Shown here: positions 36,638-58,542 of the stretch, piece by piece | Layout of the letters: the number at the start of each line of letters is the position of its first letter | Numbering within the stretch: the first letter of the stretch is position 1 | Origin: an uncultured delta proteobacterium | Lineage (GTDB): Bacteria > Myxococcota > Myxococcia > SLRQ01 | DNA: 64,000 nucleotides | Assembly: GCA_963727485.1 (NCBI GenBank) | Contig: CAVSGM010000001.1 | Location: 608,001 to 672,000, forward strand | Direction of reading: 5' to 3' | Notes under the pieces: generated by a model | Database searches by the model: none | Told to the model about the DNA's origin: nothing | What the model saw: the letters and a program-made list of their open reading frames with translations, nothing else | Program-made: the position numbers and the translations under genes

Positions 36638-37938
36638 GTGCGCTACATCCTGCTCGTCCTCGCGTTGGGTCTGGTGGTCCCCGGCTGCGACTGCGGGGGC
36701 ACCGCGCTCCAGCACACCGACCCCTGCCTCACCGACCCGGCGTCCTGCCCCGCCGACGCGGGGACCCCGCCCCCGGTGGTCGACGCCGGGACCCCGCCGC
36801 CCCCGGTGGACGCGGGCACGCCGCCCGCCGCCGCCGCCGCCCCCGCCGCCGGTGGATGGCGGCACCCCCGACGCCGGCCCGCCGCCTCCGCCCCCGCCGC
36901 CGACCTGCACCTACGGCGCGGTCACCGGCCGGGTCTGCGCCACCGACCAGCAGACCTGGGTGGGCGGCGCCACCGTCACCCTCGACGCCACCGACTGCAA
37001 CGGCAACCCGGTGCACCGCACCACCACCTCCGCCGCCGACGGCAGCTTCCAGCTCCTCGCCGTCCCCGCCGGGAGCTGGACCGTCCACGCCGCCCTCGGC
37101 GCCTTCCAGCAGGACACCCCGGTCACGGTGAGCGCGGGCCTGACCACCCAGATCCCCGACAACCAGCTCTGCGTCGCCCAGAAGACGGTGAAGATCGCGG
37201 TGATCACCGGCTCTGGCGACAAGATTGAGAACCTCCTCGACACCCTCAAGCTCACCTACACGATCTACGGCGGCACCAGCACCACCTACGCCAGCCAGGC
37301 CGAGCCCTTCCTCGAGAACCTCAAGGAGATGGAGCAGTACGACCTCATCTTCGTGGACTGCGCCGCGGCGCGCTCGAGCGGCAAGGAGGACTTCGGGTCC
37401 AACGCGTCGCTCATCGAGCAGAACCTGAAGCAGTACGTGGCCGACGGCGGGTCCATCTACGCCTCGGACTGGGCGCTGCTCTTCACCGTCTACGCCCACC
37501 CCGGCGACTTCGACTACCTCACCAGCACCGGCTCCCCCGTGGCCGACCCCCAGGCGACCAACCAGCTTCATGGGCTACGCGCCCCAGACGGTGACCGCGG
37601 ACATCGCCGACCCGGGCCTCGCCGCCTTCGTGGGCAAGCAGCAGGTCTCCATCGCCTTCCCCCGGGGGGGTGGGGTCTCCAGCCTCCACTGGGGCCTGAT
37701 GCAGACCGTGGACCCCAAGGCCAAGGTCCTGGTGAGCGCCCGGTCCCTGACCACCTGCGACGGGACCTCGAGCTGCGGCGCCGGGCCCACCGCCAGAAAC
37801 GTGCCCCTCGCGGTCGAGTACAAGGTGACCCCCGCCGACCAGAAGGGCGGCGACATCATCTACACCTCGTTCCACAACATCGCCCAGACCGGGCCCGACG
37901 TGGCGCAGATCCTAAAGTACATCGTGCTCCACCTCTAG
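36638..37938 (+). CDS. Myxobacterial lipoprotein with DAGTPPP repeats and carboxypeptidase-regulatory-like domain (two frameshifts)
   Basis: GGAGG then GTG; signal ending PG|CDC; VTGRVC...GATV...DGSFQL..VPAG; YVADGGSIYASDWA; IIYTSFHN. Confidence 0.7.
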
Positions 37939-38102
37939 GAGTCCGGTGGGGGCGCCGCAGCGCCGGCCGCGGGGTTTCTCGACCCGGGGCGGGGCATCGT
38001 CCCGCGGGCACGGTATACTCGCCCAGGTTGGCGTGCTGGGCGCCGGAGGGTGATTGCTCGACCCGACCCTCCGCCACGCCCCTGGCCGGGAAGGAGCGCG
38101 GG

Positions 38103-40710
38103 ATGGGTCCCGAGGTGGGGTGGGCCAGCGCGGCCCTGGACCGGCTGCGCGAGGGGTGTCGGATCCTCGACGCCGAGGACCGCTACCGGTACGCCAACGA
38201 CGCCGCCCTGCGGCAGCTACGGACCACCCGCGAGGGCCTCCTTGGGCGCGCGCTCCTCGAGGTGTTCCCGGAGGCCAGGCACTCGGAGGTGGTGGCCGCG
38301 GTCCACCGGTGCCGCGACCAGGGCGCCGTCCAGGACCTGGAGGCGACCCACGTCTTCCCCGGCGGCGACCGCGCCACCTTCGACCTGCGCCTCGAGCCCT
38401 TTGACGACGGGGTGCTCATCCTCTCCCGGGAGATCACCGCCCAGCGTCACGCCGAGGCGGCCCTGGCCCGGACCAGCCGGGCGCTGGTCACCCTGAGCGA
38501 GTGCAACCAGGCGCTGGTGCGCGCCACCGACCGGGGCGCCTTCCTCCAGGCGGTGTGCGCCGTCGCCGTGGAGCGGGGGGGCTACCGGATGGCCTGGGTG
38601 GGGATGAAGGCGCCGGGCCCCGAGCGGTCGGTGGCGCCGGTGGCCCATGCCGGCATCGACGACGGCTATCTGGCGCAGCTCCGGGTCACCTGGGACGCCC
38701 GCCCGCGGGGGCAGGGGCCGACGGGGCGGGCGGTGCGCGACGGGGAGGTGGTCAGCGCCCGGTTCATCGCCACCGACGCCACCTTCGACCCCTGGCGGGA
38801 GGCGGCCCTGGCCCGGGGCTTCGCCTCGTCCCTCGCCCTGCCCATCCGCCAGGCGGGCGAGGTGGTGGGCGCCCTGACCCTCTACGCCGGTGAGCCCGAC
38901 GCCTTCGACCACGACGAGCGGGCCCTGCTCGCCGAGCTCGCCGAGGACCTCGGCTACGGCCTCGAGGTGCTGACGACCCGCGCGGCCCGGGCGCGCGCCG
39001 AGGCCCACGTGGCCCACCTCAACGCCGTGCTCCGAGGCATCCGCGAGGTCAACCGGCTCATCGGCCAGGAGACCGAACGGTCGCGCCTGCTCCAGCAATC
39101 CTGCGAGGTCCTGGTGGCCTCCGGGGCCTTCACCGGCGCTGCGGTGCTCCTGGCCGACGACCTCGGACCCCCGAGCCTGGTGGCCGCCGCGGGCTTCGGT
39201 CCCAAGGCCCGGGCCCTCGAAGCGCTCACCGCCGGCGGCGTGCTCCCCGACTGCGCCCGGGAAGCGCTCACCGGACGGGCGCCGGTGGTCCGCCACGGCC
39301 CCCGGGACGCGTGCCAGGGGTGCCCGGTGGCGGCGTCCCACGACGACGAGGACAGCGTGGCGGTGCGCCTCGCCCACGGGGACCGGATCTTCGGGGTCCT
39401 CCTCGCCGACGCGCGCCGGGACACCGCCGGCGAGGCCGACGAGCTCGCCCTCCTCGAGGAGGTGGCCGGCGACCTCGCGCGGGCCCTGGAGGCCTTCTCG
39501 CTCCGGGAGGCCCTCGACGACGAGGCGGCAAGGACCCGGGCGGTGGAGGCGCGCCTGCGCCAGACCCAGCGCCTGGAGGCGGTGGGCCGCCTGGCCGGGG
39601 GCGTGGCCCACGACTTCAACAACCTCCTCACGGTGATCAACAACTACGCGGCCCTCGCCCTCGACGGTCTCGGCGAGACCGATCCCGTCCGCGAGGACCT
39701 GACCGAGGTGCGCCGGGCCGGATCCCGGGCCGCCGAGCTCACCCGCCAGCTCCTCGCCTTCAGCCGGCGGCAGGTGTTGGAGGTGTCGGTCCTCGACCTC
39801 GGCGAGGTGCTCTCGGAGGTGGAGAAGATGCTCCGCCGGGTCCTCGGCGAGGACGTGGAGCTGCGGCTCGAACGCGATCCCGACCTGGGCCGGGTGAGGG
39901 CCGACCGGGGGCAGCTCGAGCAGGTGGTGATGAACCTGGTGGTCAACGCCCGGGACGCCATGCCCGACGGGGGTCGCCTGGTCCTCGAGACCCGGAATGT
40001 CGAGCTCGAGGCCGACGACCTGGCGCAGCACCCTCAAGGTCGCCCCCGGGCCCTTCGTGATGCTCGCGGTCACCGACACCGGCAGCGGCATGGACGAGGC
40101 GACCCGGGCCCACGCCTTCGAGCCCTTCTACACCACCAAGGCCAAGGGCAAGGGGACCGGCCTCGGCCTCTCCACCGTCTTCGGCATCGTGACCCAGAGC
40201 GGTGGGGCCCTGTCCCTGGACAGCGCCCCGGGGCGGGGCACCTGCCTGCGGATCTACCTGCCCCGGGTCGACGGCGTGGGGACCCCCGCCCGCCCCGAGC
40301 CGCAGGCCGAGGCGCCGGGGGCAGGGGAGACGGTGCTGGTGGTCGAGGACGAGGCGGCGGTGCGGCGCCTCGTGGTCCGCATCCTCACCGACGCCGGCTA
40401 CCGGGTGCGCGCCGCCGAAAGCGGCGCCGAGGCCCTCGAGACCTGGGCGGCGGACCCCGGGGCCTACGACCTGGTGCTCACCGACGTGGTGATGCCGGGG
40501 ATGAACGGTCGCGAGCTGGTCGACCAGCTCCGGGCGAAGGCGCCGACCCTCCGCGTCCTCTACATGTCCGGCTACCCCGAGGACGCCATCGGGCACCACG
40601 GCGTCCTGGATCCAGGGACCTGGTTCCTGGGCAAGCCCTTCTCGGGGGTGGCGCTCACCCGGAAGGTGCGCGAGGTGCTCGCCGCCGCCGTGCCCGCGCC
40701 CGGCTCCTAG
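38103..40710 (+). CDS. Hybrid sensor histidine kinase PAS-GAF-GAF-HisKA-HATPase-REC (frameshift near 40035)
   Basis: GRLAGGVAHDFNNLL, NLVVNARDAM, DTGSGM, FEPFYTTK..GKGTGLGL, VLVVEDE...TDVVMPGMNG...KPF. Confidence 0.92.
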
Positions 40711-42824: not shown

Positions 42825-44318
42825 ATGCCGACGCCGACCGACCTCCGCCGCGCCGACCCCCGCTTCCCCGCCTTCTTCCGCCACCGGGCCCTGGCCGGCG
42901 GCCACCTCATCACCGGCCTCGCCGGCCGGTGGGCCGTCCTCGACGACGCCGAGTGGCAGGCCTTCGTCGAGGGCCGGGTGGACCCGGCCTCGGAGACCTG
43001 GGAGACCCTGCGGCGCGGGGGCTTCATCCGGGCCGAGGTCGACGTCGACGACCTCGCGGCGCGGCTGCGCCGGAAGAAGGCGTTCCTCGGCAGCGGCCCG
43101 AACCTCCACATCGTGGTCACCACCCTGCGGTGCAACGAGACCTGCGCCTACTGCCACGCCAGCCGCGCCGACCTCGGGACCGAGGGGGTGGACCTCACCG
43201 CCGAGATCGCCGAGCAGGTGGTCGACCGGATCCTGGAGACCACCTCCCCGGACGTGACCATCGAGTTCCAGGGGGGCGAGCCCCTGGTCAACTGGCCGGT
43301 GGTGCGCCACCTGGTCGACTACGCCCTGGAGAAGAACCGGGTGGCGGGCAAGTCGCTGGAGTTCACCCTGGTCTCCAACCTCGCCGCCATGGACGAGGAG
43401 AAGCTCGCCTTCCTCCTCGAGCACAAGGTGCAGGTGTGCACCTCGGTGGACGGGCCGGCGCCGCTCCACAACAAGCAGCGGGTCCTGGCCGGGGGCGACG
43501 CCCACGCCACCGCCCTCCGGTGGATCAAGCGCCTCAACGAGGCCTACCGGGACGAGGGCCTCGATCACGAGGTCTACCACGTGGAGGCCCTGCCCACGGT
43601 CACCCGGGCGGCGCTGGCCGATCCCGAGGGCCTCATCGACACCTACCTCGACCTCGGGTGCAAGGCGATCTACCTCCGGCGCCTCGATCCCTTCGGCTTC
43701 GCGGCGAAGACCCGGGCGAAGCTTGGCTACTCGGTCGACGAGTTCCTCGAGTTCTATCGCCGCGCCCTCGACCACATCATCGAGCTCAACCTGAAGGGCA
43801 CCCGGATCCTGGAGCGCACGGCGGCGATCTTCCTCACCAAGATCCTCACCCCCGACGACCCCAACTTCCTCGACATCCGCTCGCCCTGTGGCGCCGGCAT
43901 CGGCCAGCTCGCCTACAACTACGACGGCTCGGTGTTCACCTGCGACGAGGGGCGGATGCTGCACGAGATGGGCGACGACATGTTCGTCCTCGGCCACGTG
44001 GGCACCGACCGCTACCGCGACTTCGTGGGCCACGACACGGTCAAGAGCATGATCCTGGCCTCGGACCTCGACGCCTCCCCGGACTGTGCCGACTGCGCCT
44101 ACAACCCCTACTGCGGGATCTGCCCGGTCTACAACTACGCCACCCAGGGCAGCCTCCACGGCCAGATGCGGCGCAGCGACTGGTGCGCCGGGCACATGGG
44201 GATCCAGGACCATCTCTTCGGCAAGCTCGCCGAGGGCGACCCGGCGGTCCGCGAGGTGTTCCGGCGCTGGGTCGAGGTGCGCCCCCGGGACCACTACCTG
44301 CACGAGGCGGAGAGCTGA
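42825..44318 (+). CDS. hxsB: His-Xaa-Ser system radical SAM maturase HxsB
   Basis: LHIVVTTLRCNETCAYCHAS, TIEFQGGEPL, RSPCGAGIGQLAYNYDG.VFTCDEGRML and SPASM CADCAYNPYCGICP. Confidence 0.85.
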   Translation: MPTPTDLRRADPRFPAFFRHRALAGGHLITGLAGRWAVLDDAEWQAFVEGRVDPASETWETLRRGGFIRAEVDVDDLAARLRRKKAFLGSGPNLHIVVTTLRCNETCAYCHASRADLGTEGVDLTAEIAEQVVDRILETTSPDVTIEFQGGEPLVNWPVVRHLVDYALEKNRVAGKSLEFTLVSNLAAMDEEKLAFLLEHKVQVCTSVDGPAPLHNKQRVLAGGDAHATALRWIKRLNEAYRDEGLDHEVYHVEALPTVTRAALADPEGLIDTYLDLGCKAIYLRRLDPFGFAAKTRAKLGYSVDEFLEFYRRALDHIIELNLKGTRILERTAAIFLTKILTPDDPNFLDIRSPCGAGIGQLAYNYDGSVFTCDEGRMLHEMGDDMFVLGHVGTDRYRDFVGHDTVKSMILASDLDASPDCADCAYNPYCGICPVYNYATQGSLHGQMRRSDWCAGHMGIQDHLFGKLAEGDPAVREVFRRWVEVRPRDHYLHEAES

Positions 44319-44320
44319 TC

Positions 44321-45229
44321 ATGGATCGCGTGGACCTGAAGATCGGCTTCGCCTGCAACAACCGCTGCGCCTTCTGCGTGCAGGGCGACAAACGGGAGCG
44401 CGAGCCACCCCGGCCCATGGAGCAGATCCGCGCCGACCTCGAGGCCGGCCGGCAGCGCGGGGCCAGCGGCCTGGTGGTCACCGGCGGCGAGCCCACCGTC
44501 CACACCAACGTCCTCGAGGTCATCCGCCTCGCCAGGCAGCTGGGCTACACCTCGATCCAGGTCCAGACCAACGGCCGGCGCTTCCACTACGATCTCTTCG
44601 CCCGGGCGGCGGTGGAGGCCGGCGCCACCGAGTTCTCGCCCTCGCTCCATGGCTCCACCGAGCAGATCCACGACGGGCTCACCCTCTCGCCGGGGAGCTT
44701 CCAGCAGACGGTCAAGGGCATCCGGAACCTGGTGAAGATGGACCAGGTGGTCATCACCAACTCGGTGATCACCAGCACCAACTACACCGATCTCCCGGCC
44801 TTGGCCGAGCTGCTGGTGGACCTGGGGGTCAGCCAGTTCCAGCTGGCCTTCGTCCACATCCTCGGGTCGGCGGAACAGAACGCCAGCTGGCTGGTGCCCC
44901 GCAAGTGGGAGGTCATGCCCTTCGTCTACCGGGCCCTGGACATCGGCGAGGCCGCCGGCGTCCGATGCATGACCGAGGCCATCCCCTACTGCCTGATGGA
45001 GGGGTACGAGGACTTCGTCGCCGAGGACCTCATCCCCGACACCCTCATCTTCGACGCCGACCACACCATCGACGACTACGCCGCCTACCGCCGGGACGAG
45101 GGGAAGGTGAAGGGCCCCGCCTGCGCCGACTGCCGGTTCACGGATCGGTGCGAGGGGCCCTGGCGCGAGTACACCGACCTCTTTGGCTGGGACGAGTTCA
45201 AGCCCATGGGCGCGCTCAAGGAGGCGTGA
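44321..45229 (+). CDS. Radical SAM protein, HxsC-like, with C-terminal CxxC-x4-C
   Basis: CNNRCAFC, TGGEPT, QTNGR, IPYC and CADCRFTDRCEGPWREY; starts 2 nt after the hxsB stop. Confidence 0.85.
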   Translation: MDRVDLKIGFACNNRCAFCVQGDKREREPPRPMEQIRADLEAGRQRGASGLVVTGGEPTVHTNVLEVIRLARQLGYTSIQVQTNGRRFHYDLFARAAVEAGATEFSPSLHGSTEQIHDGLTLSPGSFQQTVKGIRNLVKMDQVVITNSVITSTNYTDLPALAELLVDLGVSQFQLAFVHILGSAEQNASWLVPRKWEVMPFVYRALDIGEAAGVRCMTEAIPYCLMEGYEDFVAEDLIPDTLIFDADHTIDDYAAYRRDEGKVKGPACADCRFTDRCEGPWREYTDLFGWDEFKPMGALKEA

Positions 45230-45244: not shown

Positions 45245-46306
45245 TCAGGCGGCGAGGCGCGGGCGGAGCCACTCGGCGATGGCCGGGTAGAGCTTCCGGG
45301 CGGCGCGGCTGCCCACCACCGCGCCCACGTGGCCGCCGGGCACGGTGATCGACTCGGTGTCCTCGCTCCCCGAGGCCTCGAGGAGGGCGGTGGCCGCGGG
45401 AACCGGGCAGATGACGTCCCGGTCGGCGGTGATGGAGAGGATGGGGCAGGTGACGTCCTTCAGGTCCACCCGCCGGCCCCGGGCGTGGTGGGTGCCAGCG
45501 ACCAGGGCGTTTCGCTGGTAGAGGTCCCCGATGTAGGTGCGGTAGGCCTCGGCGGGGAAGGGGATGTTGTCCCGGGCCCAGGTCTCCAGGGCGAGGAAGC
45601 GCTCGAGGCGCTCGGGATGGCCCACCAGGTCCGGGAGGCCCATCAGCTTGGCCAGGCCCGCGGTGGGGCGCAGGCCGGTGAACCCGCTGTCCATCTGCTG
45701 GGGGCTCACGTTGCCGGCGTCGGCGATGGCCCCGGCGTCGAACCACCGCCGGTCGACCATGCGGCCCAGGCACCCGGCGTGGGTGAAGTCGAAGGGGCCG
45801 GCGAGGTTCACGAAGGCCGCGGCGTCCCCGGGCTCGAGGGCGAGGTGGATGCCGGTGAGGGTGGCGCCCATGCAGTAGCCGAGGAGGCCCAGGCGCGGGG
45901 CGCCGGTGAGGCGCTTGGTGCGCCGCACCATCCGGGCGAGGCGCGCCAGCACCTGGTCCCAGTCGAGGTAGCGGTCCTCGTCCTCGGGGATGCCCCAGTC
46001 GAGGAGGAAGACGTCGTAGCCGGCCCGGGCGAGGTGGCCGGCGAGGGTGCCCCCCGGGCGCAGGTCGAGGACGTACCAGCGGTTGATGAGCGAGGGGACG
46101 AGGAGAAGCGGCAGCCCCGTGGGCGCCGGGGCCCCCTCGGGCCGCCGGAAGCGGTAGAGCCGGGCGGTGCCCTCCCGGTGGAGGGTGTCACGGGGCGTGG
46201 GGGCGAGGTCGGGGCGGGGGAGGGCGTCCGGGCCCAGGGCGAGATCGAGGCCGGCTTCCAGGCCGGCCTCGATCACGCGGCCCGCCCACCGGTACAGGTC
46301 GTACAT
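45245..46306 (-). CDS. phaC: Class III/IV-type PHA synthase PhaC (copy 1)
   Basis: [16 protein letters not shown], lipase-like box GYCMG, D in DRDVICP, H in GGHVG. Confidence 0.85.
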   Translation of the reverse strand: MYDLYRWAGRVIEAGLEAGLDLALGPDALPRPDLAPTPRDTLHREGTARLYRFRRPEGAPAPTGLPLLLVPSLINRWYVLDLRPGGTLAGHLARAGYDVFLLDWGIPEDEDRYLDWDQVLARLARMVRRTKRLTGAPRLGLLGYCMGATLTGIHLALEPGDAAAFVNLAGPFDFTHAGCLGRMVDRRWFDAGAIADAGNVSPQQMDSGFTGLRPTAGLAKLMGLPDLVGHPERLERFLALETWARDNIPFPAEAYRTYIGDLYQRNALVAGTHHARGRRVDLKDVTCPILSITADRDVICPVPAATALLEASGSEDTESITVPGGHVGAVVGSRAARKLYPAIAEWLRPRLAA

Positions 46307-46330
46307 GCGGTGGCTCCGGGGTCGTGGGGA

Positions 46331-46633
46331 CTAGTCGCGGGTGTTGCCGGCGGCGCGGCGGGTGGCCTCGAGGGCCATCTTCCGCCACTCGTCGCCGAGG
46401 CGACCGGCGTACTCCATCGAGGCCTTCATCACCGAGGCGGCCTCGTCCACCAGGGCGCGGCCCTGCTCCAGGCCCTTGGTCTGGAGGGTGCCGAGCTCGG
46501 TGTGGAGGGACTCGAGGCGCTCGACGTAGGCCCCGGTCATCTTGTGCCAGGCGTCGAGGCCGGCGCGGGGATCGAAGGCGAAGGCGTCGAAGGGGCTCTG
46601 CTGCGACTGCGAAGGGGTGGTCTTGGGCATCAT
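46331..46633 (-). CDS. Phasin-like small helical protein
   Basis: 100-aa amphipathic helical protein between phaR and phaC, preceded by a PhaR-type box. Confidence 0.55.
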   Translation of the reverse strand: MMPKTTPSQSQQSPFDAFAFDPRAGLDAWHKMTGAYVERLESLHTELGTLQTKGLEQGRALVDEAASVMKASMEYAGRLGDEWRKMALEATRRAAGNTRD

Positions 46634-46718
46634 CGGCTCCAGTTGGTGCGTCTGGGGGCCGATTTCACGGCCCCGGGGGTTTGCGAACGCGCCAAGAGGT
46701 AAGCGTCCTCGCCGGGGT

Positions 46719-46747
46719 CGTCAAGGGATTTTTTGTGCACCGCACAA
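46719..46747 (-). promoter_or_regulatory. PhaR-type operator TTGTGC-ACC-GCACAA (46733-46747) plus -35 TTGACG
   Basis: Perfect inverted repeat with TGC-N3-GCA core, 11 nt from TTGACG, upstream of the phasin-like gene. Confidence 0.75.
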
Positions 46748-46757
46748 TAATCCGGGC

Positions 46758-47492
46758 TCACCGCCCGGCGCCGCGCCCCTTGTTGGCCGCGCGCTTTCCC
46801 TTGGGGGACGCGGCCCGGGACGCCTTCTTCCGGGCGCGGGGCGGGCGCCCTGGTTCGGGCGCGTCGTCGTCCCCGCCGAGGCGGGCCTTGAGGGCGTCGA
46901 GCTCGGCGCGGAGCTCGGCCATCTGGTCGCGCTGGTCGCGCTGGTCGCGCGACCGTGCCGCCGCCTCCGCCTCGGGGGACGACGCCGGCGGGGGGGCCGC
47001 GGCCGGCGGCGCCGGGTCAGGCGGCGCCCCGTAGACCGGGCCCCCGTACCCCGGCGCCGTGAAGCCCCCCCCGCCGCGCTGCAACAGCATCCGCGCCAGG
47101 GAGCCGGCGAAGTCGAAGGGCATGGTGGCGAAGGGGTTGTAGTTGGAGAGGGTCTGGGCGCCCTGGCGGGCCTGGAGGTAGACGTCGAGGGCCCCGGAGA
47201 CCCAGCGCCCGGTGAACTCCGCCAGGGCCTCGTCGCCGAGCCGGATGAGCCGGGTGAGCAGGGGGACCGGGAGCATCCGCCCGGCGCCCCGGCCCTCGAG
47301 GATGATCTGGGCCAGGGTGGGCTGGGTGAGGTCGGTGCCGGTCTTGGCGTCGACCACCTCGACGTCGGCGCCGGCGCGGATCCGCGCCTCGAGCTCGTCG
47401 AGGGTGACGTAGCGGCTCTCCTCGGTGTCGTAGAGCCGGCGGTTTCCGTACTTCTTGACCAGGACCGGTCGGGCGGCGCGGCGGCGGGCCAT
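46758..47492 (-). CDS. phaR: PHA synthesis regulator PhaR (DNA-binding domain)
   Basis: VKKYGNRRLYDTEESRYVTLDEL...VVDAKTGTDLT...LAQII. Confidence 0.92.
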   Translation of the reverse strand: MARRRAARPVLVKKYGNRRLYDTEESRYVTLDELEARIRAGADVEVVDAKTGTDLTQPTLAQIILEGRGAGRMLPVPLLTRLIRLGDEALAEFTGRWVSGALDVYLQARQGAQTLSNYNPFATMPFDFAGSLARMLLQRGGGGFTAPGYGGPVYGAPPDPAPPAAAPPPASSPEAEAAARSRDQRDQRDQMAELRAELDALKARLGGDDDAPEPGRPPRARKKASRAASPKGKRAANKGRGAGR

Positions 47493-47501
47493 GGGGGCTC
47501 C

Positions 47502-47513
47502 TTGTGCGGTGCG
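47502..47513 (-). promoter_or_regulatory. PhaR-type box overlapping the phaR RBS (autoregulation)
   Basis: Minus strand CGCACCGCACAA, 11/12 identical to the phasin box, running into AAGGAG. Confidence 0.6.
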
Positions 47514-47618
47514 GCAAAATCGTGGGTGCGCCGCGACAGGGACGGCGCCTTGGCCCGGGCATGATGGGGCGCGAACGCCCGAACTGCAAGGGTTTGCGAG
47601 GCCCCGGGGGCGGGGTCG

Positions 47619-47711
47619 TTGTTGCGGCGCAACAAAGAGCCCTTGACACCTGGGTCACGGACGCCTATCAACCGCTACCCGAAGGGTCGCCGTGGATACC
47701 GCGGCGCAGCA
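47619..47711 (+). promoter_or_regulatory. Promoter of the rightward operon flanked by two PhaR-type boxes
   Basis: TTGTTGC-GGC-GCAACAA palindrome (47619-47635), TTGACA (47643) - 17 nt - TATCAA (47666), second box CGCGGCGCAGCA (47700-47711). Confidence 0.7.
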
Positions 47712-47732
47712 AACGGCCCCGAGGAGGTGTCC

Positions 47733-48774
47733 ATGGACCCCACGCCCGCAGCCAACCGATCCCGTGACACCGTGGTGGCCGCCGGCTATGGGGGCACCAT
47801 GCCGCCCCTCCCCAGAGGCCGGGTCGTCGCCGCCCGGGCCGCCCTGACCCTCTCCCGGGTCCTCGCCGCCGTCGCCGCGGCCCTCCTCGCCGGCGGCTGC
47901 GGCGCCGGTGGGAGCGCCCCCTGCCAGGTGGACACCGACTGCCCCAGCGGCGTCTGCGGCGTCTCCGGGGTGTGCCAGCCTCCCTCCGCCACCGACGGAG
48001 GCGTGGGGGACGGCGGGGCGGTGGGCCCCCGATGGGGACGGCGGCACCGGCGGGGGCTCGGGCACCGACGGGGGCGCCGCCACCTGCGTCCCCAACCACG
48101 ACGGCACCGTCTCCCGGGACGAGGTCACCCTCGCCGCGGGCCTCTCGGCCACCTTCCGCATCGGCACCCAGGCCACCGTGGACACCGCCGGCACCTACGA
48201 CGCCGACGGCACCCGGCACTGGCGCCTCGACGGGGACCTCGCCGGGGACCACGACGTGACCGTCGCCACCCTCTCGCCGGCGGGCACCTGGTGGGCCGGC
48301 GACTTCAAGGACGCCACCTACGCCGGCCGCCTCCGGGACGGCCAGGATCTCTTCGGGGTGTTCCAGGCGACCCCCACCGCCCTGATGCTCCTGGGCGTGG
48401 TCTCCCCGAACGGCGGGGCCACCCGCACCGAGCTCACCTACCACCCGGCGGTGCAGGTCCTCCACTTCCCCCTCACCCAGGGGGCGGCCTGGCGGACCGA
48501 CAGCCAGGTCACCGGGGTCACGGGCGGCGTCGCCAGCTACTACACCGAGAGCTGGGTCGACCGGGTCGACGACTCGGGCCGCCTCGACACCCCCTACGGC
48601 ACCTTCGACGTCCTCCGGGTCCGGGTGGAGACCACCGACGACCAGGTCACCCCCACCCGGAGCTTCCTCTTCGTCTCCGAGTGCTTCGGCAACGTGGCCT
48701 CGGTCTTCTCCAACCCCGGCGAGACCGCCGCCGAGTTCACCCGCGCCGCCGAGGTCTCCCGCCTCGCCCCCTGA
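47733..48774 (+). CDS. Lipoprotein A of the PHA operon (frameshift near 48025)
   Basis: GAGGAGG RBS; LAGG|C; Cys-rich CQVDTDCPSGVC module; CVPNHDGT...E; C-terminal FVSECFGNVA...PGE. Confidence 0.75.
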
Positions 48775-48778
48775 AGCC

Positions 48779-49702
48779 ATGCGCCGCGTCCTCGCCCTCG
48801 CCGCCCTGATGGCTACCCTCGCCGGCTGCCCCGCCTTCCACCGGGGCGTGCTCCCCGGCGCGCCGCCCCACGCCGACTACCTCGAGGTCGACGGCGTCCG
48901 GGTGCGCTACCTCGACGTGGGCCAGGGCCAGCCGGTGGTCCTCATCCACGGCTTCGCCTCCAGCCTCGACGCCTGGGCCCGGGTGATCCCGGTCCTGGTC
49001 CGGGACCACCACCGGGTGCTGGCCCTGGACCTCAAGGGCTTCGGGTGGAGCGGCCGGCCGCAGGGGAGCTACAGCCCCGAGGCCGAGGCGCGCCTGGTCC
49101 TGCGCCTCATGGACGCCCGGGGCATCGGCCGCGCCGACGTGGTCGCCCACTCCTGGGGCGGCTCGGTGGCCCTGGCCCTCGCCCTGAAGGCGCCCAAGCG
49201 CGTGCGCCGCCTCGCCCTCTACGACGCCTGGGTCTACGACGACGAGATCCCCAGCTTCTTCCGCTGGGCCCGGGCCAGGCCGCTCGGCGAGATCCTCTTC
49301 AGCCTCTTCTACAAGCAGCGCCCCGAGGACCGCCTGGCGCTGGCCTACTACGACCCCACCAAGATCCCCCAGTCCCTGGTGGACGCGGTGCGCCGGGCCC
49401 TCGACCGGCCCGGGACCGTCGCCGCCGCCCTCGCCGCGGTGCGCGATCTCGACTTCGTCCGCCTCGCCCGGCGCTACCACCGGGTGCGCCAGCCGACCCT
49501 GCTCCTCTGGGGCCGGGAGGACGTGGTGAGCCCGGTGGCCACCGGCGAGCGCCTCTCCGCGGACCTCCCCGACGCCCGCCTGGTGGTCTTCCCTCGCTGC
49601 GGCCACATGCCCATGGTCGAGGCCGCCGACCGGTCGACCCGGGCCCTGGTGCGCTTCCTCGACGCGCCCGCCGCCGCGCCCGCCGCCGGGGTCTCGCCGT
49701 GA
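48779..49702 (+). CDS. Lipoprotein alpha/beta hydrolase (lipase/esterase-like)
   Basis: Lipobox LAG|C; HGF, DLKGFGWS, nucleophile AHSWGG, WGRED and CGHMP. Confidence 0.9.
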   Translation: MRRVLALAALMATLAGCPAFHRGVLPGAPPHADYLEVDGVRVRYLDVGQGQPVVLIHGFASSLDAWARVIPVLVRDHHRVLALDLKGFGWSGRPQGSYSPEAEARLVLRLMDARGIGRADVVAHSWGGSVALALALKAPKRVRRLALYDAWVYDDEIPSFFRWARARPLGEILFSLFYKQRPEDRLALAYYDPTKIPQSLVDAVRRALDRPGTVAAALAAVRDLDFVRLARRYHRVRQPTLLLWGREDVVSPVATGERLSADLPDARLVVFPRCGHMPMVEAADRSTRALVRFLDAPAAAPAAGVSP

Positions 49703-51335
49703 GCGCCGCCCGCCGTCCCGCGCGCCGCCTCGCCGTCGCGCTCCTCGCCGCGCTCCTCGCCGCGGCCCTCGGCCTCGCCCCCGTCGCCGCCCGCGCCGGC
49801 GACGACGGGTTCACCGGGCTGGGCGCCGAGCTCCGGGGACACGCCTTCGCCGCCCCCAACGCCCCGGCCAAGGTCGGCCTCCACGGCTACCTCCGCCTCC
49901 GGGGCGGCCTCCTCGACAACCTCGATCTCGACCGGGGCCTCGACGCCAGCGGCCGGCCCCTCTTCCCGGTGCCCCTCACCGGCGGCCAGACCCTCTCCTT
50001 CGCCGACAGCCGCCTGCGCACCGACCTCTCGATCCTCGCCCCCGGGGGCACGGTCGCCGTCCACGCCCGCATCGACGTCCTCGACGACGTGGGCCTGGGG
50101 ACCACCCCCGACGCGCCCAGCGTCCGCGCCGCCACCCCCGCCGCGAGCGCCGGCCAGCGCCCCCTGAAGGCCCTGGCGATCAAGCGCGCCTGGGGCGAGG
50201 TGCTCACCCCCTTCGGCCTCCTGGCCGCCGGGCGCATGGGCAACGACTGGGGCCTGGGCCTCCTCGCCAACGGCGGCGACTGCGAGAGCTGCGACGGCGG
50301 CGACGCCACCGATCGCGTCGCCTTCGTCACCCCCCTCGTCGGCCACCTCTTCGCCCTGGCCTACGACTTCGACGCGGTGGGCGCCACCACCACGGACAAG
50401 CCGGGCCTCACGGTGGTCGATCTCGCCCCCACCGCCGACGTCCACACCGTGACCTTCGCGGTGATGAAGTGGAAGACCCGCCTCGCCCGGGATCGCCGCC
50501 GCCGCGCCGGCCGCGCCACCTTCGAGTACGGCGCCTGGCTCTCGCACCGCTGGCAGCACAACGACGTCCCCGCCAGCTGGATGCCCACCGCCACCCCGGT
50601 CGCGGTCACCCCCAGCGGAGTCATGGCCCGGGGCTACCAGGCCACCGCCCTCGACGGCTGGGCCCGCCTCACCGCCCCGCGCCTCGAGATCCAGGCCGAG
50701 GCGGCGGTGCTCCTGGCCTCGGTGGCCCAGCCCTCCGTCATCCCCGGGGTCCTCCTCCACACCCCCGTGACCTCCACCCAGGCGGGCGCGGCGGTGGTGA
50801 GCGCCTGGCACCCGCTCCCGGGCCTGGTGGTGGGCCTCGACGCCGGCTACGCCAGCGGCGACCCGGCCCCGGGCTTCGGCGCCTTCCCCACGCCCGGCAG
50901 CCCCGCCCCCAAGGCCGGCGCCCTCGACGGACCCCAGGCCAGCCCCCCGGGCGACACCACCGTGGACAACTTCCGCTTCCACCCGGACTTCCACGTGGAC
51001 CGGATCCTCTTCCGGGAGATCATCGGCACGGTCACCGACGCCATCTACGTGCGGCCCCACTTCACCTGGCGGCTGGTGGATCTGGGCAACGGTCACCTGG
51101 AGGTGGGCGCCGCGGTCATCGCCTCCCGGGCGATCTACGCCAGCTCCACCCCCGGGGGCGCGGTGCCGCTGGGCGTCGAGATCGACCCGACGCTCCGCTA
51201 CGCCACCGACGACGGCTTCGCCCTCACCCTGGCCCACGCGGTGCTCTTCCCCCTCGCGGGCCTCGACAACCCCGCCGCGGGCCTCAAGGCCCAGCCGGCG
51301 CAGGTGCTCCGCCTGCGGATCTCTACCGGTTCTAA
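49699..51335 (+). CDS. Outer-membrane beta-barrel, TIGR04551-like (terminal frameshift; real end ...YRF*)
   Basis: Signal peptide AARA|G; LHGYLRLR, IKRAWGEV.TPFG...GRM...WGLGLLANGGDC, NFRFHPDFHVDRILFR; C-terminal Phe. Confidence 0.75.
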
Positions 51336-51338
51336 TCC

Positions 51339-52147
51339 ATGCGCCTCGCCCTCGCCAGCGCCCTCGTCCTCGCCCTCGCCGCCTGCGGGGGCCAGAACCG
51401 CACGCCCTTCGGTGCGGCGGCCCCGACCGGCACCGCCGCCTGCCTCCCCAACCTCGACGGCACCATCACCGCCGCCGAGCTCCGGCCGGTGATCGGCGCC
51501 ACCCTCACCTACGACGTCTCCACCGACGTCCCGGTGGACCTCGCCGGGCGCCAGGACGGGGGCCGGACCCTCTGGGACTGGTCGGCGACCGCCGGCGGCA
51601 CGAAGGTGACCGAGGGCCCGGTGGCCCTCGCCGGCCAGTGGTACGCCGGCGCCTTCCCGACCGGCGCCTTCGTGCTGCCCGCCGGCGGCGGCCTGGTGGG
51701 CGTCTACCGCGCCGACGACACCGCGGTGTGGCTCTTGGGCACCGCCTCGGCGGACCCGAGCCCCCCGAGGGCCAGACGCGCCTCGTCTACGACGCCCCGG
51801 TGGCGGTCTACCGCTTCCCGATCACCGCCGGCGCCACCTGGACCTCCACCGCCGGGGTCACGGGCACCTTCGACGGGCTGCCCTACCGGGGCCAGGTCAC
51901 CTACGCCGCCCGGGTGCGGGACGCCGGGGAGCTGCGCCTCCCGGACGTCACCTTCACCGAGGTCCTGCCGGTGGACTTCACCGTCACCAACGCGCCCACC
52001 CCGGGGACCCCGGTGGTCCAGAGGCAGGTGAGCTTCCTCTTCGAGTGCTTCGGCGAGGTCGCCCGCGCGACCAGCCACCCCGGGGAGCAGAGCCCCGACT
52101 TCTCCAACGCGGCGAGCCTTCGCCGCCTGACCCTGGAGGCCAGATGA
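51339..52147 (+). CDS. Lipoprotein B, paralog of lipoprotein A (frameshift near 51768)
   Basis: [12 protein letters not shown]...E; C-terminal [10 protein letters not shown]...PGE. Confidence 0.75.
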
Positions 52148-52432
52148 TCGGATGGGACCAGTTCAAGCAGGGCTTCGACGCCTGGGAGCGCATCACCGCC
52201 GACTACCTGGAGCGCCTGCTCCAGAGCGACTCGGTGCTCCGGCCGGCGGGGAGCCTGCTCACCTTCTCCATGAAGACCAAGGCGGCCACCGACAAGGCCG
52301 CCGCCGCCTGGTGGGGGGCCATGGGCCTGTCGACCCGGCGGGACCAGGAGCGCGCCCTCCACGCCCTCAACCAGCTCGAGTCCAAGAATCCTCGACCTCG
52401 AGGAGCGCCTCGAGGATCTCGGGGAGGCTTGA
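52144..52432 (+). CDS. Small PhaE-like PHA synthase partner subunit (frameshift near 52387)
   Basis: [29 protein letters not shown] resembles the PhaE C-terminal LPTR..coiled coil; about 95 aa. Confidence 0.6.
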
Positions 52433-52437
52433 GGGCC

Positions 52438-54198
52438 ATGGACGTCACCGAGCTCCTCGAGGTGAAGGCCGCGCCCCAGGCGGTCTTCGACGCCCTCCCG
52501 GCGCGCCGGGACCGGGTGCGCTTCATGGTGCCCCGCTCCGGCGGCGGCCACGACCCGGTGACCCTCGGCGCCTTCGCCGAGGCCATCCGCGGCGTCGCCC
52601 TCTGGCTCGCCGCCGGCCCCCTGAAGCCCGGGGAGCGCGCGGCGGTCTTCGCCCCCAACCGGGTGGAGTGGGGCACCGCGGCGCTCGCGATCCAGGCCGC
52701 CTCCGGGGTGATGGTGCCCATCTATCCCGGGAGCACCGCCGACCAGGCCGCCTACGTGGTTCGCCACGCCGACGCCCGGGTGGTCTTCGTGGACACCCCG
52801 GTGCTCCTGGCGCGGATCCTCGAGGCCTGGAGCGCCTACGCCTCGGTGCGCCACCTCGTCCTCCTCGACGACGGCCTCGACGTGGCCAGGCTCCACGCGG
52901 AGCTCGCCCACGGCGACGGCCCCCACGGCGACGGAGACCTCCCGAGCCTCGCCGAGGTCGAGGCCAAGGTGGTGCGACTCTCGGCGGTCCTGGGCCACGG
53001 CGCCGCCCGGCACCAGGCCGACCCCGAGGCCCTCGATCAGCTCCTCGCCGCCGTCGACGTCGATCGCCCGGGGCTGATGCTCTACACCAGCGGCACCTCC
53101 GGGAGCCCCAAGGGCGTGCCCCTGACCCACCGCAACGTGGGGGTCAACGGCGCCGACTGGCTCCGGTGCTTCGCGCCGATCCTCGAGGACGACATGGTCG
53201 ACCTCTTGTGGCTGCCCATGAGCCACATCTTCGGCTTCGGCGAGCTGTGCCTGGGCAACACGCTGGGCTTCACCACCTACCTCTCGGACCCGGCGAGCGT
53301 GCTCGCCCGGATGCCCGAGGTGCGCCCCCAGGTGTTCATGAGCGTGCCCGCCTACTGGGAGAAGCTCGCCCTCGCCGCCGCCGAGGACGACGACCCCGCC
53401 GCGCGGCTCCAGGATCTCACCGGCGGCCGGCTCACGGTGTGCCTCTCCGGAGGCGCCGGTCTCAAGACCGAGGTGAAGCAGCGTTTCCAGGACGCGGGGA
53501 TGCTCGTGGTCGAGGGCTACGGCCTCACCGAGTGCTCGCCCACCCTCACCCTGAACCGCCCCGACGACTTCCGCTTCGACGCGGTGGGCAAGCCGCTGGC
53601 CTCGGTGGAGCTCAAGCTCGCCGACGACGGCGAGATCCTCGCCCGGGGCGCGAGCGTGTTCGCCGGCTACCACAAGGATCCCGGCGCCACCGCCGAGTGC
53701 TTCACCGACACCGGGTGGTTCAAGACCGGGGACGTGGGCCGGTTCACCGAGGACGGGTTCCTCCAGATCATCGATCGGAAGAAGGACATCCTGGTCACCG
53801 CCGGCGGCAAGAACGTGCCCCCGGCGAACCTCGAGGTGCGCTTCCGCGACGACCCCTTCATCGAGCACCTGCTGGTCTACGGCGACGGCCACAAGTACCT
53901 GGTGGCGGCGGTGTGGCCGCGGGCCGAGGCGGTGGAGAGGTGGCTGGTCGGGCACGCGGAGGGCGAGGCGCGGGATCACGCGATCCGGGCGCTGCTCGCC
54001 GAGCGCATCGAGACGGTCAACGCCGGCCTCGCCCGCCACGAGACCATCAAGGACTTCGTGGTGATCGACGCGCCGCTGACCGTGGAGGCGGGCCTGCTCA
54101 CCGCGTCCCTCAAGGTGCGGCGCAAGGCGGTGTACCAGCGCTACCGGGACCGCCTCGAGGCCCTCTACCAGGCCCCGCGCCAGGCGGCGGGCGGATGA
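52438..54198 (+). CDS. Long-chain fatty-acid--CoA ligase (AMP-binding)
   Basis: [51 protein letters not shown]. Confidence 0.92.
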
Positions 54199-55238
54199 GC
54201 CCGCCGGTCGATCCCAAGGTGCTCGGGCGCCTGAAGAATCTCCTGCGGCTCCCGGTGAAGCGGCCCCAGGTGGGCGTGACCCCGGCCCAGGTGGTCCACG
54301 CCGAGAACAAGTGGCGCCTCCTGCGCTACGCCCCCCGGGCCGCGGGGCTCGCCTTCGACACCCCGATCCTCCTGGTGCCCTCGCTCATCAACCGGCACTA
54401 CGTCCTGGATCTGATGCCGGGCAAGAGCCTCGCCGAGTGGCTGGTGGCCCGGGGCCACGAGGTCTACTGCATCGACTGGGGCCGGCCCGGGCCCGAGGAC
54501 CGGTACCTCGACTTCGACACCATCACCGACGGGTACCTGGGCCGGGCGGTGCGCCACGCGGCGAAGGCGGCGCCCTCGGGGAAGGTGCACCTGCTCGGCT
54601 ACTGCCTCGGGGGGACGCTCACGGCGATCCACGCCGCCGCCCGTCCCGAGCGCGTGGCCTCGCTCACGGTCCTGGCGGCGCCGGTGGCCTTTGGCGACGA
54701 GGGGCTCCTGGCGCGGTGGGTGCGCAGCGAGACCTTCGACGTCGACGCCCTGGTGGACGGCGCCGGGAACGTCCCCTGGCAGCTGATGCAGTCGGCCTTC
54801 CACCTCCTGCGCCCGACCCTCGGCCTCGCCAAGCTCATCCACCTCCTCGATCGGGCCTGGGACGACGTCTTCCTCGACGGCTTCCTCGCCCTGGAGACCT
54901 GGGGGAACGACAACGTCTCCTTCCCCGGCGAGGCCTACCGCCGGTACATCGGCGAGCTCTACCGGGACGACGCCCTGATGCAGGGGACCTTCCGCCTCTC
55001 GGGGCGGCCGGCGCGCCTCGAGGCCATCGCCTGCCCGGTGCACGTGGTGACCTTCGCCCACGACAACATCGTCCCCGAAGCGAGCGCCGTCCCCCTGGCG
55101 ACGGCGGTGGCGTCGGCCGATGTGGTCCATCGGTCGCTGCCGGGGGGCCACGTGGGGGCGGTGGTGTCGCGGAAGGCCGCGCAGGGCCTGTGGCCGGCCC
55201 TGGCCGAGTGGTGGGAGGGGCAGTCCGGCCCCCGGTGA
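54195..55238 (+). CDS. phaC: Class III/IV-type PHA synthase PhaC (copy 2)
   Basis: [28 protein letters not shown] in HDNIVP, H in GGHVG. Confidence 0.87.

Positions 55239-55425: not shown

Positions 55426-58542
<3,117 letters not shown>

Follow-up and report, generated by a model that had tools for sequence, protein, structure and literature searches.

Introduction

Why should genes for the synthesis of a polyester lie in one operon with genes for the outer membrane? The question is raised by a locus at positions 45245-55238 of a 64,000-nt stretch of DNA (the whole of which is called here the window) from contig CAVSGM010000001.1 of an uncultured delta proteobacterium of the phylum Myxococcota, whose genome is represented by a 93%-complete, 5.55-Mb assembly. 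The locus associates genes of polyhydroxyalkanoate (PHA) metabolism, namely the regulator phaR, a phasin-like gene, the synthase genes phaC1 and phaC2, a short gene related to phaE (mini-PhaE) and an acyl-coenzyme A (CoA) ligase gene, with an envelope block of four genes, which we refer to as module A: lipoprotein A (lipoA), a lipoprotein hydrolase, an outer-membrane barrel and lipoprotein B (lipoB). A first-pass annotation had proposed that the locus scavenges external polyester or lipid and re-polymerizes the monomers, or else that it exports polyester or assembles it at the cell surface.

Comparison of the locus with its relatives leads us to consider it rather probable that the envelope genes serve the import, hydrolysis, CoA activation and re-polymerization of external hydroxyacyl esters, a judgement drawn from genomic comparison and structure prediction. 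The scavenging proposal is supported by gene order, by co-occurrence with PhaC, by operators, by the predicted docking of lipoB, by the permeases of related loci and by an analogous module, and we keep it as an inference.

Results

The envelope block accompanies PHA synthase genes across the Myxococcota

A search with lipoB gave matches in 71 of 401 genomes, and 69 were retained after the genome of the window itself and one weak match had been dropped. A PhaC match is present in 65 of these 69 genomes, as compared to 115 of the 331 others, and two of the four positive genomes without one carry a divergent PhaC-like gene in the locus itself. The 69 genomes span 12 families but 37 of them belong to a single one, and kin do not count as independent cases.

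We then compared 47 related loci, of which 39 surround lipoB matches spread over families and 8 were found via the barrel. The order lipoA-hydrolase-barrel-lipoB is uninterrupted in 41 of them; of the six exceptions, four lie at a contig edge, in L072 a different protein replaces lipoA, and L073 contains two inserted genes. The entire seven-gene rightward order of the window is kept in 17 loci. Thus, both the conservation of gene order that the first-pass annotation had suggested looking for across the phylum and the co-conservation of the envelope genes with phaC are found. A PhaC-like gene is present in 40 of the 47 loci, phaR in 34, a CoA ligase in 34, a FabG/PhaB-like reductase in 22, and a permease of the major facilitator superfamily (MFS) or of the sodium:solute symporter type in 17, the window's locus having no such permease. 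The surroundings of the block vary, in at least four layouts, and the ligases are of two unrelated kinds (26% identical). Three types of CoA-supplying arrangement and four groups of permeases were each found repeatedly.

The PHA genes also occur by themselves. In loci L091-L101, phaR is found with mini-PhaE-ligase-phaC2 and no envelope block, and most of these loci carry the phasin gene and phaC1 as well. The cytoplasmic core (phaR, phasin, two phaC, mini-PhaE and ligase) can stand alone, and the envelope block is an optional add-on. At the level of whole genomes, matches to the secreted depolymerase family PF10503 are widespread across the phylum (174 of 401 genomes), occurring in 48 of the 69 module-A genomes and in 126 of the 331 others, which is weak support for a link with module A. 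In one related locus, a gene of the penicillin-amidase family directly follows lipoB (L071:11620-14253), a hint of acyl amide substrates there.

PhaR-type operators travel with the block

The palindrome TGC-N3-GCA lies upstream of all 26 phasin-like genes (3.1 expected) and of 33 of 47 phaR genes (6.6 expected). When a matrix built from 40 sites of relatives only was run over the whole genome of the window, the site at 46730 ranked first and that at 47617 third. The operator consensus, a YGCRNYGCR palindrome with AT-rich arms, fits the PhaR motif of S. meliloti, which has been verified by electrophoretic mobility shift assays (PMC12542648). Other genome-wide matches lie at C11:119717, 168774 and 32923; the first of these was examined and shows no evident link to PHA.

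Sites of at least 17 bits were found in 11 of 13 hand-picked loci and in 3 of 3000 background windows (L088 was outside this test). In three of the 11 loci phaR is adjacent, two loci end at a contig edge, the site of L061 precedes the downstream operon, and that of L067 may serve a divergent phaC. The informative cases are thus L062, L068, L071 and L090. In the first three, the envelope genes have no adjacent phaR and yet a PhaR-type site is found upstream (29.4, 24.9 and 24.3 bits, respectively). In the fourth (L090:218-2853, genome G079), a lone third copy of lipoA lies directly before a gene for an extracellular short-chain-length (scl) PHA depolymerase (NF050058 score 294, cut-off 150), behind a PhaR-type site of 33.8 bits. 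Even in loci with phaR at another place, the operators thus appear to stay with the envelope genes, and PhaR likely controls expression of the locus.

A second PhaR-like gene was observed at L125:3936-5844 (G000:C1:~484000-486000, G000 being the window's genome), beside a ParA-like gene and a gene for a coiled-coil protein of 121 aa, which by eye is similar to mini-PhaE.

The barrel is a TIGR04551 paralogue with the predicted fold of a small-solute channel

A TIGR04551 member is present in 60 of 61 genomes searched, usually as a single copy with PHA genes not nearby; the genome of the window has its own core copy (G000:C3:610143-611645, 553 bits). The module barrels also belong to this family, the orthologue from locus L040 scoring 301.8, but in a quick tree 23 of them and 18 core barrels fall on opposite sides of one branch (SH-aLRT support 100). 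Judged by these comparisons, the module barrel is a separate paralogue and not an orthologue of the core member. The expectation that scavenging would give a TIGR04551-like barrel a function can thus be kept for the paralogous subfamily, and does not extend to the whole of TIGR04551, as its core member is found almost throughout the class and is unlinked to PHA genes. The neighbourhood of the core gene is conserved (L031, L046) and reads like argH-lysA-dapA-dapB, these names being judged from translations. In Myxococcus xanthus, the core barrel is MXAN_5931, and its expression is nearly unchanged during predation (PMC9548883).

The barrel of the window gave no Pfam match and no sequence match to any solved chain. 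Structures were modelled on the intact orthologues of genome G034 (locus L040), because several genes of the window are frameshifted (see below). The barrel model (mean predicted local distance difference test, pLDDT, 83) shows 18 strands and, on one side, long loops, and its closest folds are MOMP (Z 23.9, root mean square deviation (rmsd) 3.5 over 339 aligned residues), OccD2 (Z 22.7), OpdQ (Z 22.1) and AlgE (Z 22.0), which suggests a fold closest to those of small-solute channels. Arginines on strands 1-2 are invariant in the alignment. Two other identities were considered and rejected. FadL is a 14-stranded barrel with an N-terminal hatch, and SusCD systems employ a TonB-dependent, plugged barrel of 22 strands; the model has 18 strands and no plug domain, and neither FadL nor TonB-dependent receptors head the list of fold matches.

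LipoB is predicted to dock on the outer loops of the barrel

The domains of lipoA and lipoB are paralogous (hhalign probability 100%) and have no Pfam name; the family has 1175 matches and, among the matches listed, all are named 'hypothetical'. The lipoB model (pLDDT 92) is an open beta half-barrel, whose best fold match, 4fvs (BDI_3050; Z 9.5, rmsd 4.0, 168 aligned), tells no function; further matches are YmcC/GfcB (Z 7.1) and several LolA entries (Z 4-5). Against the sequences of solved structures, lipoB gave only EF-hand-like local matches.

In the complex model of the L040 pair, barrel and lipoB scored 0.66, as compared to 0.01 for the best of three controls, so that the prediction of a barrel-lipoprotein complex, which the first-pass annotation had also called for, gave a positive answer. 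At least 90% of the contacts agree between runs, and the pLDDT of the partner is 84. Of 157 solved complexes, 116 pass the mark applied to this score, as do 2 of 215 mismatched pairs; these counts are only rough where own alignments are used. The model is unlikely to be a recall of known structures, since no solved chain resembles either protein in sequence.

The predicted contact residues on the barrel lie in the loops after strands 9, 11 and 13, on the long-loop side. Among the barrels displayed, all 9 of the module type keep the contact loop motif, which the 7 core ones do not share. By the usual topology of outer-membrane barrels, the long-loop side is extracellular; import lids sit outside, whereas the partners of export barrels sit in the periplasm. 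Thus, lipoB is predicted to dock on the extracellular loops of the barrel, a position more in keeping with a protein that captures substrate for import than with a scaffold for export. Residues 23-35 of lipoB form an invariant C-x-P-x-x-D-G-x-I-x-x-x-E loop, which gives the weak EF-hand matches (lanmodulin, E 0.0007), is part of the predicted interface, and may bind calcium.

An analogous module and its relation to Myxococcus xanthus

A second lipoprotein-barrel-hydrolase module was found in 104 of the 401 genomes, 95 of which have a PF10503 match. It is present in 12 of the 14 genomes that have a PhaC2 of the window's type and no module-A lipoprotein, and both modules occur together in 11 genomes. 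Loci of this module include L092:588-7212, L093:12537-17721, L098:9390-12788 and L113-L124. In L092, L093, L095, L119 and L120, it is accompanied by extracellular scl-PHA depolymerases above the family cut-off and by PhaR-type sites. A symporter, often present there, is 44% identical to that of module A. In L119, symporter and PHA depolymerase form one frame of 1172 aa, and in L120 depolymerase and lipoprotein form one of 859 aa.

In other loci, the analogous module follows a TetR gene, a FabH-like gene and a ligase gene, and the reductase family of module A is adjacent (73-80% identical). This form matches MXAN_0214-0220 of M. xanthus by gene order, annotation and three exact lengths (331, 519 and 396 aa). 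During predation on S. meliloti, MXAN_0214-0220 show a roughly tenfold induction, with rises of log2 1.7-3.7, and of 3.0-3.7 for 0216-0220 (PMC9548883). In the same data MXAN_0211 (log2 2.3) and the polyhydroxybutyrate (PHB) depolymerase MXAN_0016 (2.36) also rise and FadL-like genes fall; the authors label MXAN_0220 a lipase, read MXAN_0216 as a fatty-acid activator, and postulate an unknown uptake process (PMC9548883). A single peptide of MXAN_0219 has been found in the outer membrane (PMC3222651). On the prey side, lower phbABC expression is the sole relevant report in the paper concerned. The lipoprotein families differ between the two modules, and we treat the analogous module as evidence by analogy.

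The PHA core and the hydrolase

Both PhaC proteins consist of a single domain of ~350 aa in which the Cys lipase box and the Asp and His motifs are present (G-Y-C-M-G, D and GGH in phaC1). TIGR01836 is the best family for both, yet their scores, as well as those of relatives (225-282), are below its cut-off of 365.3. The sequence matches of phaC2 among solved structures are PhaC structures only. PF09712 (PhaE) is matched by 20 of 21 aligned members of the mini-PhaE family, only over model positions ~230-306 of 311, and by the intact mini-PhaE of L040 with a score of 29.5 (cut-off 25.7); the small open reading frame (ORF) before the ligase is therefore, by its sequence, a true PhaE fragment. 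PhaR scores 89.7 for TIGR01848, below the cut-off of 109.45, and its DNA-binding domain PHB_acc_N (PF07879) is above cut-off. The phasin-like ORF has no Pfam or NCBIfam match, and homologues sit at the same place in relatives. The ligase carries AMP-binding domains; its best NCBIfam family, FadD11, is far below cut-off.

As for monomer supply, the first-pass annotation had pointed out that phaA, phaB and phaJ are missing from the window. This makes a weak argument, as relatives carry the locus reductase and the genome has two MaoC/PhaJ-like domains above cut-off elsewhere, so that supply of monomers through beta-oxidation may be possible. No phaB was found in the whole genome at the TIGR01829 cut-off; phaA was not searched for.

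The hydrolase has a lipobox, and its Ser125-Asp248-His276 triad is invariant in 40 sequences; in the NCBIfam scan it reached the cut-off of no specific family.

Two further kinds of PhaC-like protein were observed. A divergent protein of ~475 aa (25% identical to phaC1; family f29) replaces phaC after lipoB, before ligase and reductase, at L061:7037-8455 and L062:6976-8415, and proteins with N-terminal extensions of ~200 aa, possibly PhaE-PhaC fusions (family f12), are encoded at L057:15165-16835 and L059:1902-3788.

Layout of the locus and frameshifts

Genes were called from the ORF listing, translations and Pfam and NCBIfam family scans, which confirmed the ten genes, strands and order of the first-pass annotation (Table 1). 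Its description of all junctions as overlapping or within 5 nt holds for the seven rightward genes (4-nt overlaps or gaps of 3-5 nt), and not for the leftward ones, which are separated by 24 and 124 nt. A promoter scan of the locus found none, and no plus-strand terminator was found inside the operon.

Table 1. Genes and predicted operators of the locus, in window coordinates.
Feature	Position	Strand	Description and scores
phaC1	45245-46306	-	class III-like PHA synthase catalytic subunit; TIGR01836 232.9 bits; Cys-Asp-His motifs intact
phasin-like ORF	46331-46633	-	100 aa; small and helical; tentative label, from its size, location and operator
predicted PhaR operator	46730-46750		upstream of phasin-phaC1; 33.4 bits
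phaR	46758-47492	-	PHA accumulation regulator; PF07879 88.5 bits, cut-off 25
predicted PhaR operator	47499-47519		divergent phaR/lipoA region; 14.2 bits, weak
predicted PhaR operator	47617-47637		divergent phaR/lipoA region; 21.3 bits
lipoA	47799-48774	+	lipobox, Cys-rich and Gly-rich linker, then domain paralogous to lipoB
hydrolase	48779-49702	+	lipoprotein alpha/beta-hydrolase; PF00561 122.3 bits
barrel	49699-51335	+	outer-membrane TIGR04551 paralogue, predicted 18 strands; TIGR04551 334.7, cut-off 300
lipoB	51339-52147	+	predicted open beta-sheet half-barrel
mini-PhaE	52144-52432	+	~96 aa; C-terminal part of PhaE only
acyl-CoA ligase	52438-54198	+	AMP-forming, long-chain type; PF00501 206.6, PF23562 41.9
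phaC2	54195-55238	+	class III-like PHA synthase; TIGR01836 258.8; Cys-Asp-His motifs intact; 47% identical to phaC1

Single-base frameshifts, on which the first-pass annotation is silent, occur in four of the genes: lipoA (~48030), the barrel in its last codons (~51321), lipoB (~51760) and mini-PhaE (~52388). The copies of relatives are intact; in run X4, from a near relative, one contig each has a compensating indel at 51321 and at 52388 (weak evidence, with a depth of 3-4); and frame switches affect other conserved genes of the assembly (5 of 34 query matches, 3 different genes). The frameshifts are therefore probable assembly errors. For those of lipoA and lipoB, no spanning read contig was among those shown. 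Further signs of indel errors were seen at 36852-40710 of the window, where apparent frameshifts join a lipoprotein-like gene to one for a PAS/GAF hybrid sensor kinase.

With regard to neighbouring genes, His-Xaa-Ser radical SAM genes (42825-45229; HxsB above cut-off, HxsC4-like) end 15 nt from phaC1, and an HxsB homologue is also found near the related locus L034. After phaC2, positions 55426-58542 encode a secreted multidomain protein of 1038 aa with a C-terminus that is phosphoesterase-like by eye; it has no NCBIfam match at 1e-55 and is not kept beside the locus in relatives.

Discussion

How might the envelope block work with the PHA genes? In the pathway that we favour, an 18-stranded channel is topped on its outside, as predicted, by lipoproteins that would bind short (R)-3-hydroxyacyl esters. 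These esters, probably PHA oligomers that other cells have released, would pass inward through the barrel. The lipoprotein esterase, presumably acting after this passage, would cut them to monomers, which would cross the inner membrane by a permease, as the MFS proteins and symporters of related loci suggest. The ligase would activate the monomers to CoA esters, and PhaC1 and PhaC2, with mini-PhaE, would re-polymerize these, so that the envelope block would feed the otherwise self-standing cytoplasmic core. Where present, the FabG-like reductase could link (R)-3-hydroxyacyl-CoA with 3-oxoacyl-CoA in either direction. A more specific form of this proposal we advance only tentatively: a TonB-independent, lipoprotein-capped importer might deliver prey PHA oligomers, via esterase and ligase, to a PHA synthase that operates without de novo monomer synthesis, two interchangeable modules being employed for this across the phylum, of which MXAN_0217-0220 would be one.

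Several observations weigh against such a pathway. The hydrolase scores below the cut-offs of PHA depolymerases (NF050089, 74.5 versus 300; TIGR02240, 51.4 versus 250.6), and its matches among solved structures are mixed, including C-C hydrolases, esterases and one PHB depolymerase. A ligase of the long-chain type would suit fatty acids better than 3-hydroxybutyrate. Extracellular depolymerases are found in none of the 47 module-A loci, seven of these have no PhaC nearby (several being short contigs), and L072 has no operator. A PF10503 match is missing from 21 of the 69 module-A genomes, and in genome-wide profile searches the window's own genome showed neither a PF10503 or NF050058 secreted depolymerase nor orthologues of the locus permeases or reductase. 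The tie between Occ channels and AlgE in the fold search would be compatible with transport in either direction. Homology of the barrels of the two modules is not supported (hhalign probability 0.9%), and the M. xanthus-like analogous loci lack PhaC and a PhaR site and carry TetR and FabH-like genes, so that the substrate of that module may be a lipid. Finally, the four frameshifts could mean that the copy is decaying.

Of the other explanations, the import of general products of prey lipids (acylglycerols, lysolipids or 3-hydroxy fatty acyl esters of lipid A or ornithine lipids) appears to us unlikely. The ligase would then feed beta-oxidation or storage, PHA being merely a downstream sink. 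Its long-chain type would fit, as would the loose likeness of lipoB to open barrels of the LolA/DUF3108 kind, the lipase label of MXAN_0220 and the reading of MXAN_0216 as a fatty-acid activator (PMC9548883), and a genome in which no depolymerase is recognized; but the block is accompanied by PhaR-type operators, in L090 a PHA depolymerase gene follows a copy of lipoA, and the barrel is predicted to be a pore of the Occ type, in which arginines are conserved, and not a 14-stranded FadL. The first-pass annotation's alternative of a polyester exported through the barrel to the cell surface, in the manner of AlgE, PgaA or the group 4 capsule system, is disfavoured and in our view quite improbable. 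AlgE does match the fold as well as Occ channels do, YmcC/GfcB is among the matches of lipoB, barrel and phaC2 are tightly coupled, and an unexplained release of PHA is reported for an Alcanivorax mutant (PMC7147478). However, granules in the cytoplasm are what PhaR, PhaE and the phasin-like gene suggest, the core is also found where the block is absent, the block can sit away from phaC, neither an inner-membrane polymer exporter nor a tetratricopeptide repeat scaffold recurs in the loci, and lipoB is predicted to dock on the long-loop side.

Recapture and re-activation of the cell's own PHA products, leaked or shared within the swarm, would find a parallel in P. putida, where a granule-linked acyl-CoA synthetase recycles released monomers (PMC3918157), and would be in line with control by PhaR, which fits the status of the cell's own polymer, and with a genome that has no recognisable secreted depolymerase. 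Self-recycling would require neither a lid at the surface nor the secreted depolymerases of the analogous loci, and the analogous module is induced in predation; we thus give this explanation little credence. It is more improbable still that the envelope genes are unrelated passengers or that this copy is a remnant in decay. Frameshifts in four of the ten genes and the absence of the block from many PhaC loci would speak for this, but the association has been kept through at least four rearranged layouts, operators follow the block, and near-relative contigs restore two of the frames.

If uptake and re-polymerization of external esters is indeed the role of the locus, the cycling of PHA in soils, sediments and sludge would include a further natural step, the re-polymerization of monomers obtained by scavenging, a TIGR04551 subfamily and an unnamed lipoprotein family would gain a function, and the set of channel, esterase, ligase and synthase could serve the biological recycling of PHA plastics. 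The analogous operon of M. xanthus would be a candidate for the 'unknown uptake process' of PMC9548883. Precedents exist for single steps, in the hydrolysis of prey PHA by Bdellovibrio (PMC4834554) and the re-activation of monomers by P. putida (PMC3918157). In literature listings and the starts of abstracts, with subscription journals and bioRxiv supplements outside the scope, we found no published description of an operon of PHA genes with a lidded channel, nor of the passage of PHA breakdown products through the outer membrane; TIGR04551 is not named in the main texts searched and appears only as annotation in a supplement.

Comparison with known systems

Among known systems, SusCD likewise has a lipoprotein on the extracellular face of a barrel, as predicted here, and a hydrolase in the same substrate-specific locus. 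Module A would work alike without being a member, as its barrel has 18 strands and neither plug nor TonB box in the model, and its lipoprotein is all-beta. With OprD/Occ channels, Campylobacter MOMP and AlgE, the barrel has in common 18 strands, as predicted (Z 22-24), as well as conserved arginines and long loops that fold inward; it differs in having no sequence match to solved chains and in its predicted dedicated lipoprotein on the outer loops, which, to our knowledge, Occ channels lack.

The operon MXAN_0214-0220, itself uncharacterised, is similar in combining a lipoprotein, a barrel, a hydrolase and a ligase and in being induced in predation (PMC9548883). Its ligase is 42% identical to a variant module-A ligase, its hydrolase belongs to a family 26% identical to that of module A, and the same reductase family is adjacent, whereas its lipoprotein is of another family and PhaC and a PhaR site are missing. 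Bdellovibrio is also a predator that degrades prey PHA to monomers and oligomers, by secreted depolymerases, and in the available text of that report hydrolysis alone is described, with neither an uptake channel nor re-polymerization (PMC4834554).

The closest relative of the PHA genes is the class III synthase (PhaC with PhaE), to which the locus is linked by its ~350-aa PhaC with Cys-Asp-His motifs, its putative PhaE-like partner, PhaR and S. meliloti-like palindromes. It departs from class III in having two PhaC paralogues below the family cut-off, a PhaE cut to ~96 aa, an acyl-CoA ligase in place of phaAB, and a four-gene envelope block inside the operon. The PHA core is thus a variant of class III, and the part for which the literature listings gave no description is the lidded channel, with esterase and ligase, predicted here within a PhaR-type regulon.

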